This document shows, in pieces, positions 42,801 through 45,800 of a DNA stretch of 64,000 nt; the first letter of the stretch is position 1, and the number at the start of each line of letters is the position of its first letter. Source of the DNA: Escherichia coli O157:H7 (lineage in GTDB: Bacteria; Pseudomonadota; Gammaproteobacteria; Enterobacterales; Enterobacteriaceae); assembly GCF_013167455.1 (NCBI RefSeq), contig NZ_CP038328.1. The stretch is one strand, 5' to 3'. The position numbers are program-made.

Positions 42801-45800
42801 TCGATTTCTGGAACTGGCTGCAAAACGGCGCGGGGCAGAAAACCGTAGATATCCTGATCCGTATCGCACTCATTCTTTTCTTCTCGGCGGTTGGCTGGAC
42901 GGTGCTCGCCAGTTTGATCGAAAACCGGCTGGCTTCGGATATTCATGGCCGCCCGCTACCCAGCGCCCGCACGCGTACCCTGCTTACGCTGTTTCGTAAC
43001 GCGCTGGCGGTGATTATCAGTACCATCACCATCATGATTGTGTTGTCGGAAATCGGCGTCAATATCGCGCCATTGCTGGCAGGTGCCGGGGCATTAGGTC
43101 TGGCTATCTCGTTTGGTTCGCAAACGCTGGTGAAAGATATTATCACCGGGGTATTTATTCAGTTTGAAAACGGCATGAACACTGGAGATTTGGTGACTAT
43201 TGGGCCGTTGACCGGCACTGTGGAACGGATGTCGATTCGCTCCGTGGGCGTACGCCAGGATACCGGGGCGTACCACATCATTCCGTGGTCTTCGATTACC
43301 ACCTTTGCCAACTTTGTCCGCGGCATTGGTTCGGTAGTGGCAAACTACGATGTTGATCGCCATGAAGATGCTGATAAAGCCAATCAGGCACTGAAAGATG
43401 CGGTAGCGGAATTAATGGAAAACGAAGAAATTCGTGGGCTGATTATTGGTGAACCGAACTTTGCCGGGATTGTTGGCTTAAGCAATACCGCGTTTACACT
43501 GCGTGTTTCGTTCACCACGCTGCCACTCAAACAGTGGACGGTACGCTTTGCCCTCGACAGCCAGGTGAAAAAACATTTCGACCTGGCGGGCGTTCGCGCG
43601 CCGGTGCAGACTTATCAGGTGCTGCCTGCTCCGGGCGCGACCCCGGCTGAACCGTTACCGCCGGGGGAGCCAACGCTTTAACGCTGGCGATTGACAAAAC
43701 GGCGGCGCTGCTCGTCGTTCATAAAGGTCCAGGCAATAAAGCGACTCTGCTTTTGCCCCTGGGCCATCTCTTTTTTAACCACCTTCACCGCGCCCACGTC
43801 CGTCAGGGCACGATACAACGGCGGTAAGTTTTCACCACGAGATACCAGTGAAGTAAACCACATCACCTGCTTCGCGAAGCCTTTGCTCTCTTCAATCATC
43901 TTTTTGATAAAGGTGACCTCACCGCCTTCACACCACAACTCCTGTTGCTGGCCGCCAAAGTTCAGTGCATCGTCTTTGTTCAGCCCCAGGTTACGGCGTT
44001 TACACTCACTACCTGCCCGCGCCGCAGCGGCGGAATCGTGGAATGGCGGGTTACACAAGGTCGCGTCGTATTGCTCGTTTTTATGGATGATGCCGTTAAA
44101 AATCGCCCCACTCTCTTTTTGCCGACGCAGACGAATGGCGCGATTAAGCCCCGGATTAGCACTGATGATCGCCTGCGCGCTGCTTAACGCCTGGCTGCTG
44201 GTTTCACTACCGGTAAAACGCCAGCCATATTCATGTACGCCAATCAGCGGATAAATACAGTTCGCACCAACGCCGATATCAAGAATGCTGGCATTAGCTG
44301 GAATTGTTCCGCTTGCTTCAGCCAGTAAATCGGCAAGGTGATGAATATAATCCGCCCGGCCCGGTACTGGCGGGCAGAGAAAACCGTCCGGGATATCCCA
44401 GTTCGCTACGGCGTAAAAATGGGCCAGCAACGCCTTATTGAGCGCCTTCACCGCCAGCGGATTGGCAAAGTCTACGCTTTGCTCCCCGGCGGGTGTAAGC
44501 GTGAGGAATTGCTTGAGTTCAGGATTGACCTGACAAAGCGTGGCGAGATCGTAGCGGCTGTGATGACGGTTGCGCGGATGCAACCCCGGTTTCTGGGCGG
44601 ACATAGCATTCTCCTTTAAGCAGCGGCGTAAGATACCCGCATAACGCGACAGGGTAAATATCTGGCTGCGTTTATCATTCCCCAAAACCTTAACATGGCT
44701 ATGGTTTATGGCAATTCATCATAAAAATCAGCATTATGCATGTCATTGATTTGTCTTATTTTGTAAAAATATATCGTTCAAAAAATAAGCACATCTCTGT
44801 CAATTTTTTGCGTCATTTGCATCGCGCAGGCGACCTACACTTATCAGGCACTACCCGTTGTATTTATGAGGATGTCATTATGAAAAAGTGCCTCACACTA
44901 CTGATTGCCACCGTCCTGAGCGGAATCTCTCTCACGGCTTATGCCGCGCAACCGATGAGTAACCTGGACAGCGGTCAGCTACGGCCCGCCGGTACCGTTT
45001 CGGCAACTGGCGCATCAAACCTAAGCGATCTGGAGGATAAACTGGCAGAAAAAGCGCGCGAGCAAGGCGCGAAAGGTTATGTCATTAATTCCGCAGGCGG
45101 AAATGACCAGATGTTCGGTACTGCAACCATCTACAAATAACCCCACCAACGTAACTGCATTCGCCTCTGGATGCAGTTTTCGCCTGTTTTGTAATCAAAA
45201 AACATCAAATATGAACGCAATGTAAATAAATGTATTTCTTTTTCGCGCAATGGGTGATAGAAAATCGCGCCAAGTGATAATGCTTATCAAAATTATTATC
45301 ACTTGCACGAACACTATCACGAGATTAACAGTGGCATCGCATCCGCAGAGAGGCTTTCTCGTGGCAGTGAAAATTTCAACATATAAGAAAAAGTCACCTG
45401 CAAAATGGAAAACAATCGCAATTTCCCTGCCAGACAATTTCATTCGCTCACGTTCTTTGCCGGTCTTTGTATTGGCATCACGCCTGTGGCTCAGGCACTC
45501 GCCGCCGAAGGGCAAACTAACGCGGATGACACGCTGGTTGTCGAAGCATCAACGCCTTCGCTTTATGCGCCACAACAATCTGCCGATCCGAAATTCTCGC
45601 GTCCGGTAGCGGATACTACCCGCACGATGACGGTGATTTCTGAACAAGTGATTAAAGATCAGGGCGCAACCAACCTTACCGATGCGCTCAAAAACGTCCC
45701 CGGCGTGGGTGCGTTTTTTGCGGGTGAGAACGGTAACTCCACCACTGGCGACGCCATTTATATGCGCGGTGCTGATACCTCTAACAGTATTTATATTGAT

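Follow-up and report, generated by a model that had tools for sequence, protein, structure and literature searches.

The window analysed here is the whole 64,000-nucleotide stretch of Escherichia coli O157:H7 DNA, and all positions are given in its coordinates. Gene names were taken from the RefSeq O157:H7 record NZ_CP066753.1 (positions 3723687-3787686), whose sequence matches the window at all but one of 64,000 bases. At the locus of interest, mcbA is followed by fiu and then by ybiX, ybiI and ybiJ. An earlier note, made from the sequence alone, had named fiu, ybiX and ybiI and had placed the latter two close behind fiu on the same strand. The names match the RefSeq annotation of the near-identical record, and the spacing is indeed tight, with spacers of 41 and 75 bp and all three genes on the + strand. 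Fiu imports catecholate siderophores as well as siderophore-conjugated antibiotics such as cefiderocol; Fur control of the gene therefore sets the uptake of such drugs under iron limitation, which is established knowledge. The features of the locus are as follows.

44880-45140, + strand: mcbA (RefSeq annotation)
45218-45243, no strand assigned: conserved block AATGTAAATAAATGTATTTCTTTTT (19-sequence alignment, ArcA ChIP peak)
45254-45281, + strand: candidate sigma-70 promoter GTGATA-16-GATAAT (9/12 in a consensus scan; inferred)
45273-45303, no strand assigned: Fur operator, three overlapping 19-bp (9-1-9) sites centred on 45282, 45288 and 45294 (weight matrix, shuffles, Chen 2007, ChIP-exo)
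45274-45279 and 45297-45302, + strand: alternative candidate hexamer pair GTGATA / TATCAC, wholly inside the operator
45275-45289, no strand assigned: first 7-1-7 inverted repeat TGATAATgCTTATCA, 1 mismatch, the strongest single-dimer site (motif search, orthologue conservation)
45287-45301, no strand assigned: second 7-1-7 inverted repeat TCAAAATtATTATCA, 2 mismatches (motif search)
45405-47687, + strand: fiu, catecholate siderophore outer-membrane receptor, 760 aa, the regulated gene (RefSeq annotation, open reading frame)
47695-47712, + strand: GC-rich hairpin GTGGGGC-GCAG-GCCCCAC followed by TTTTT (to 47717), after the fiu stop codon and before the ribosome-binding site of ybiX
47729-48415, + strand: ybiX, PKHD-type (Fe(II)/2-oxoglutarate) hydroxylase (RefSeq annotation)
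48491-48757, + strand: ybiI, C4-type zinc-finger protein (RefSeq annotation)
49022-49282, + strand: ybiJ (RefSeq annotation)

The 4.2-kb stretch around the Fur site has 100% identity with many O157:H7 genomes; this stretch, and the fiu promoter in particular, is present in 5,421 of 5,426 complete E. coli genomes. As annotated in the O157 record, ybiX is 9 nt (3 codons) longer than in K-12, encoding 228 rather than 225 aa from an ATGATG start at 47729.

The Fur operator of fiu

The earlier note had placed a Fur box at 45275-45301. The string that it quoted, the 28-mer tgataatgcttatcaaaattattatcac, is present in the window, but it occupies 45275-45302 and so runs 1 base beyond the end given. The shorter span, 45275-45301, corresponds to exactly two 7-1-7 motifs. 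The Fur site is intergenic, lying 103-130 bp 5' of the fiu ATG (start codon at 45405). The alternative that the box serves mcbA was rejected: this gene, on the same strand, ends before the box, and deletion of fur (Δfur) leaves its expression unchanged, the value of 0.40 log2 in MG1655 Δfur not being significant (PMC10164565).

The best match in the window to the 7-1-7 motif TGATAATnATTATCA, with 1 mismatch, is at 45275-45289, and a match with 2 mismatches lies at 45287-45301; only 0.21 matches with 2 or fewer mismatches are expected per 64 kb. Four consecutive NATWAT hexamers with 2 mismatches span 45277-45299 (expected, 0.02). Compared with the classical Fur 19-mer GATAATGATAATCATTATC, the locus agrees at 15 of 19 positions at 45276 and at 14 of 19 at 45282. 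A strict search for this 19-mer with up to 3 mismatches returned nothing anywhere in the 64-kb window and was dropped because the consensus is too strict, with verified sites missing it by 3-7 positions. The 16 verified K-12 Fur sites agree with GATAATGATAATCATTATC at 12-16 of 19 positions, and a 15/19 match is therefore typical of genuine Fur sites. The earlier note's description of a close match to the Fur consensus holds in that sense: 15/19 is close by the standard of real Fur sites only.

We built a symmetric 19-bp weight matrix from 16 footprinted or gel-shifted K-12 Fur sites, leaving out fiu. Training coordinates came from Chen et al. 2007 (PMC2189734, Tables 3 and 4) and sequences from NC_000913.3, and the position of each training site was verified by the distance to its gene that the paper gives. 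A weight-matrix scan had been proposed in the earlier note as a check on the site, and the fiu site ranks first in the window. Its top match, centred on 45282, scores 15.35 bits and is followed at exact 6-bp steps by sites of 12.42 bits (45288) and 13.07 bits (45294). A fourth site at 45300, with a score of about 0 bits, would stretch the cluster to 45309. Leave-one-out scores of the verified sites range from 7.5 to 28.3 bits, and the 15.35 bits of fiu are at the low end.

When the window was dinucleotide-shuffled 200 times, 51 of the shuffles contained a match of at least 15.35 bits; in 64 kb, a lone match of about 15 bits is therefore not significant. Once the single-site score had proved non-significant, the test statistic was changed to the phased cluster. 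A triple of sites, each scoring at least 12 bits and placed 6 bp apart, appeared in 0 of 300 whole-window shuffles and in 0 of 5,000 shuffles of the AT-rich intergenic DNA around the site (264 bp or 111 bp). In this analysis, the locus thus combined a fit to the Fur motif that was better than chance with clustered, overlapping sites spaced 6 bp apart, a phasing that has been described for real Fur clusters (PMC2189734). The evidential weight lies in this phased clustering, in conservation of the site, and in published ChIP data.

The same cluster has been predicted in K-12, with a score of 17.2 bits, four sites, a length of 37 bp, and a position of -123 from the fiu start (PMC2189734, Table 4), which corresponds to 45282 in the window. 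The table of that study (Chen 2007, PMC2189734) lists neither a DNase footprint nor a gel shift for the fiu site. A K-12 Fur ChIP-exo peak at 840869-840893 (P24; Gao et al. 2023, PMC10164565) maps to 45266-45290. Two Fur ChIP-exo peaks from O157:H7 Sakai, at 966077-966089 and 966111-966123 (PMC10164565), map to 45299-45311 and 45265-45277, with a small offset possible because they were mapped on NC_002695.2 and the record version is unstated in the paper. The Sakai pair flanks the box cluster, bracketing it as exonuclease borders would.

Expression data agree with this occupancy. The fiu::lacZ strain H1780 is a classical Fur reporter, and heterologous Fur proteins directly repress the fiu promoter in it (PMC3050691). 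Beauchene et al. 2015 (PMC4676285) reported that a fiu promoter-lacZ fusion is Fur-repressed and counted fiu-ybiX among the known Fur targets. In the nine strains of the ChIP-exo study, which include O157:H7 Sakai, fiu belongs to the 36-gene core Fur regulon and rises by 5.2-10.0 log2 in Δfur (PMC10164565). The changes in Sakai Δfur are 5.83 log2 for fiu and 4.73 for ybiX. For fiu, ybiX, ybiI and ybiJ, respectively, they are 5.47, 5.21, 3.04 and 1.24 log2 in MG1655 and 10.0, 7.1, 5.31 and 3.1 log2 in W3110 (all PMC10164565). The earlier note had named a lack of Fur-dependent regulation in expression data as the result that would count against its proposal; the published Δfur data instead show strong derepression of fiu. 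Its Fur box at the fiu promoter is likewise borne out by the prior K-12 prediction, by ChIP-exo in both K-12 and Sakai, and by the lacZ reporters. The motif, its statistics and conservation, and the published in vivo occupancy and Fur-dependent expression are shown; exclusion of RNA polymerase from the promoter and read-through into ybiX and ybiI are inferred.

The O157:H7 site is not a variant of the K-12 MG1655 fiu cluster (840877 in Chen 2007; P24 in Gao 2023, with the unit fiu-ybiX) but the same element. No base of the box differs between the two, and the -123 distance, the four-site 37-bp architecture and the downstream genes are the same; the one base change lies 5' of the box, where O157:H7 has CGCGCC and K-12 has CGCTCC. 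Overlapping 19-bp sites, 3 or 6 bp apart, also make up the operators of cirA, fepA-fes, entC and fepD-entS, which like that of fiu stand before a TonB-dependent receptor gene or a siderophore gene and belong to the core Fur regulon. Taken one by one, the fiu sites are weaker than these, with 15.4 bits compared with leave-one-out scores of 18.6-23.3. The fiu operator is also unusually distant from the start codon in comparison with cirA, fepA, entC and entS; should the promoter overlap the box, the 5' leader would be some 100 nt long or longer. Under the 7-1-7 model (Baichoo and Helmann, via PMC2189734), fiu has two good inverted repeats, with 1 and 2 mismatches, but these two best units are 12 bp apart rather than the 6 bp of the classical 19-mer, and the middle unit (centre 45288) is detected by the 19-bp matrix only. 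Fur control of fiu is already known, and nothing in the Fur box itself is new. The site serves instead as a positive control, in which a genuine site and the right genes were recognised from sequence alone.

To follow the operator across species, we scanned with the Fiu protein, one genome per species, and obtained 43 loci, 39 of them full-length. The best Fur match (12.1-21.2 bits) lies -112 to -125 from the start codon in 38 of the 39 full-length loci; the exception is a metagenome contig with its best match at -194. Usually, the orthologous loci have two to four sites phased at 6 bp, in a cluster at about -110 to -125. Nine genera are represented (Escherichia, Citrobacter, Klebsiella, Raoultella, Enterobacter, Leclercia, Pseudocitrobacter, Silvania and Pantoea), and the palindromic Fur pattern is kept through sequence turnover in all nine. 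In an alignment of 19 sequences, invariant columns fall into four patches: 45222-45236 in the upstream block, 45255-45262 with a -35-like TG..A, 45275-45297 in the Fur cluster, and the ribosome-binding site. The core of the second 7-1-7 repeat, ATCATTATCA, is almost invariant across genera.

Fur-dependent expression of ybiX and ybiI

The earlier note had suggested that ybiX and ybiI may be co-regulated with fiu. Published data favour this: both are derepressed in Δfur strains, and all three genes are common to the Fur-1 iModulon (PMC10164565). The increase for ybiX is 4.5-7.1 log2 in eight strains; that for ybiI is 2.6-5.3 log2 and always weaker than that for fiu, and in Sakai ybiI has a value of 0 and is absent from the list of Fur-regulated genes (PMC10164565). 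The ChIP-exo study places fiu and ybiX, or fiu, ybiX and ybiI, in a single transcription unit, and its RNA levels in MG1655 Δfur are about 1,860 for fiu, 387 for ybiX, 190 for ybiI and 82 for ybiJ (PMC10164565).

We found no Fur site in the 41-bp fiu-ybiX spacer or the 75-bp ybiX-ybiI spacer, where the best scores are -6.2 and -6.5 bits. The same was true of both spacers in 17 taxa (the window plus 16 others), with best scores of -12.8 to 5.4 bits. Because no Fur site precedes ybiX or ybiI, the best explanation of their co-regulation is transcription that starts at the fiu promoter and reads through the conserved hairpin at the fiu-ybiX junction. Gene order is conserved as well, with ybiX directly after fiu in 39/39 full-length loci and ybiI following in 34/39. 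The three genes therefore share a strand, short spacers and a conserved order, with no internal Fur site.

The hairpin between fiu and ybiX has a predicted folding energy of -19.3 kcal/mol (z -3.2). A hairpin is present at this junction in 20/20 loci folded, with stems that differ in sequence and a variable U-tract. RNAalifold gave no covariation signal because the MAFFT alignment had the stems out of register, and per-sequence folds were used. In two Escherichia lineages (L018 and L019), the hairpin is interrupted by a REP-like insertion of about 170 bp. Published RNA falls about 5-fold across this element and is still strongly Fur-dependent beyond it. The hairpin is probably a leaky terminator or attenuator, and the downstream co-regulation is attenuated because this terminator-like structure separates fiu from ybiX. 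We read fiu, ybiX and ybiI as genes under one Fur-controlled promoter with leaky termination.

It is also conceivable, though unlikely, that the iron response of ybiI, and perhaps that of ybiX, comes from promoters of their own or arises indirectly, rather than by read-through from the fiu promoter. The hairpin with its run of five T residues after fiu resembles a terminator, and a promoter-like TTGAAC-16-TATATT at 48419-48446 precedes ybiI. Among the other genera, the ybiX-ybiI spacer extends to 190-270 bp in Raoultella and Enterobacter, and ybiI is missing from Pantoea-type loci; its consistently weaker induction, and the fact that it was not scored in Sakai, point the same way. A separate iron-responsive promoter is nevertheless hard to reconcile with spacers devoid of Fur sites in all 17 taxa, with RNA that declines monotonically from fiu through ybiX and ybiI to ybiJ in Δfur, with the single transcription unit assigned by the ChIP-exo authors, and with an adjacency of fiu and ybiX that is universal in the loci examined. 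We therefore favour read-through from the fiu promoter.

The conserved upstream block and the fiu promoter

Across the nine genera, no other part of the mcbA-fiu spacer is as invariant as AATGTAAATAAATGTATTTCTTTTT (45218-45243). ArcA ChIP-seq and ChIP-chip peaks in K-12 are centred on 840921 and 840928 (Park 2013), which map to 45238 and 45231, approximately 45-50 bp 5' of the Fur operator. The ArcA peak at fiu is strong, that study called no canonical ArcA box there (Park 2013), and ArcA binding to the fiu promoter region is also described by Beauchene 2015 (PMC4676285). The TGTAA/TGTAT repeats in the block are spaced 10 bp apart and not the 11 bp of an ArcA box. A CpxR-like reading of the block (GTAAA-N5-GTAAA with 2 mismatches) was set aside as not distinctive, with 77 hits compared with about 50 expected. 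The block is probably the site of a second regulator, as the ArcA ChIP peak indicates, and/or an UP-like element.

Could the operator itself belong mainly to another regulator, such as ArcA, CRP or a Fur-family protein like Zur? Cross-linking does place ArcA in the fiu promoter region, and CRP is listed as a regulator by RegulonDB, as cited in Park 2013. The ArcA centres at 45231-45238, however, fall within the conserved block, apart from the operator, where no ArcA box was called, and fiu RNA is unchanged in an arcA deletion (5.65 vs 5.96). The operator fits the Fur matrix, and ChIP-exo puts Fur on it, which together make another main regulator highly improbable. There is similarly very little chance that AT-rich promoter DNA, with its -10-like and UP-like hexamers, mimics a Fur box by composition and that Fur dependence is indirect: TATAAT-like and GATAAT-like hexamers are hard to distinguish at a local G+C of 39%, a single 15-bit match is not rare by chance, and the window has other matches of about 14 bits, but the phased triple is absent from all 5,000 shuffles that keep the local composition, ChIP-exo peaks lie at the site in both K-12 and Sakai, the palindromic pattern survives sequence turnover in nine genera, and heterologous Fur proteins directly repress the fiu promoter in strain H1780 (PMC3050691). 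The site is best regarded as a Fur operator.

The candidate promoter GTGATA-16-GATAAT has as its -10 hexamer the first hexamer of the Fur box. The TG and A of its -35-like hexamer (45255-45262) are invariant in the 19-sequence alignment. The Fur cluster overlaps both this and the alternative candidate hexamer pair. We found no mapped fiu transcription start in the literature searched, and the ArcA study lists the start as 'NA'. A minus-strand promoter-like match at 45320-45292 was set aside, as there is no annotated gene in that direction.

As a whole explanation, the segment is almost certainly the Fe2+-Fur operator of the fiu promoter, with probable read-through to ybiX and ybiI. When iron is sufficient, Fur dimers would occupy the three overlapping 19-bp sites at approximately 45273-45303. 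Given the position of the candidate -10 and -35 hexamers under these sites, bound Fur would be predicted to exclude RNA polymerase by occlusion and keep fiu silent. When iron is scarce, Fur would leave and transcription would begin. Transcripts would extend through fiu, with part of them expected to pass the conserved hairpin into ybiX and fewer into ybiI. The outcome would be a graded iron response along fiu, ybiX and ybiI.

More tentatively, the upstream block might be a non-canonical binding site of ArcA or of a different OmpR-family response regulator that couples envelope or redox signalling to fiu, and the hairpin might be a dedicated attenuator that fixes the ratio of receptor to hydroxylase; we consider this possible but doubtful. 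If true, an envelope or redox link at 45218-45243 would bear on cefiderocol uptake.

Other features of the window

The second-best matrix match of the window, at 37996-38014 (14.0 bits), is accompanied by a 9.9-bit match 3 bp away and forms part of the palindrome ATAAGAAttgTTCTTAT (37996-38017). The start codon of dps, at 38170, lies approximately 165 bp 3' of this site. For dps, activation by Fur and a Fur ChIP peak specific to anaerobic conditions have been described (Beauchene 2015, PMC4676285).

Several Fur-like matrix matches also lie in an AT-rich region at 54161-56780, where espX2, a type III effector gene, is found between dinG and rhlE. The best of them (13.95 bits) is at 56628 in the espX2-rhlE spacer. 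The matches around espX2 are probably compositional. We found no entry for espX2 in the supplement of Gao 2023 (PMC10164565) under the guessed locus tag ECs0876.

Two more matches to the classical 19-mer were observed. One, at 13750-13768 within pdeI, agrees at 15/19 positions and scores 9.7 bits with the matrix. The other, at 27868-27886 at the ybiV/ybiU junction, agrees at 14/19 positions and scores 1.4 bits; it is near a published ybiU ArcA peak (858305-858343 in K-12, mapped to approximately 27816-27854).

Two matches to the Rfam family naRNA4, a REP-derived nucleoid-associated RNA, scored above the gathering score: one at 22686-22763 on the - strand, just after moeB, and one at 49289-49359 on the + strand, just after ybiJ. 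The K-12 annotation places the sRNA ZbiJ slightly further downstream of ybiJ. An internal stop in iaaA (19520-20485) and a frameshift in ybiW (24550-26981) mark these genes as pseudogenes in the near-identical RefSeq record. Finally, a RelE/ParE toxin-antitoxin pair lies at 9615-10320, between rimO and dgcI.
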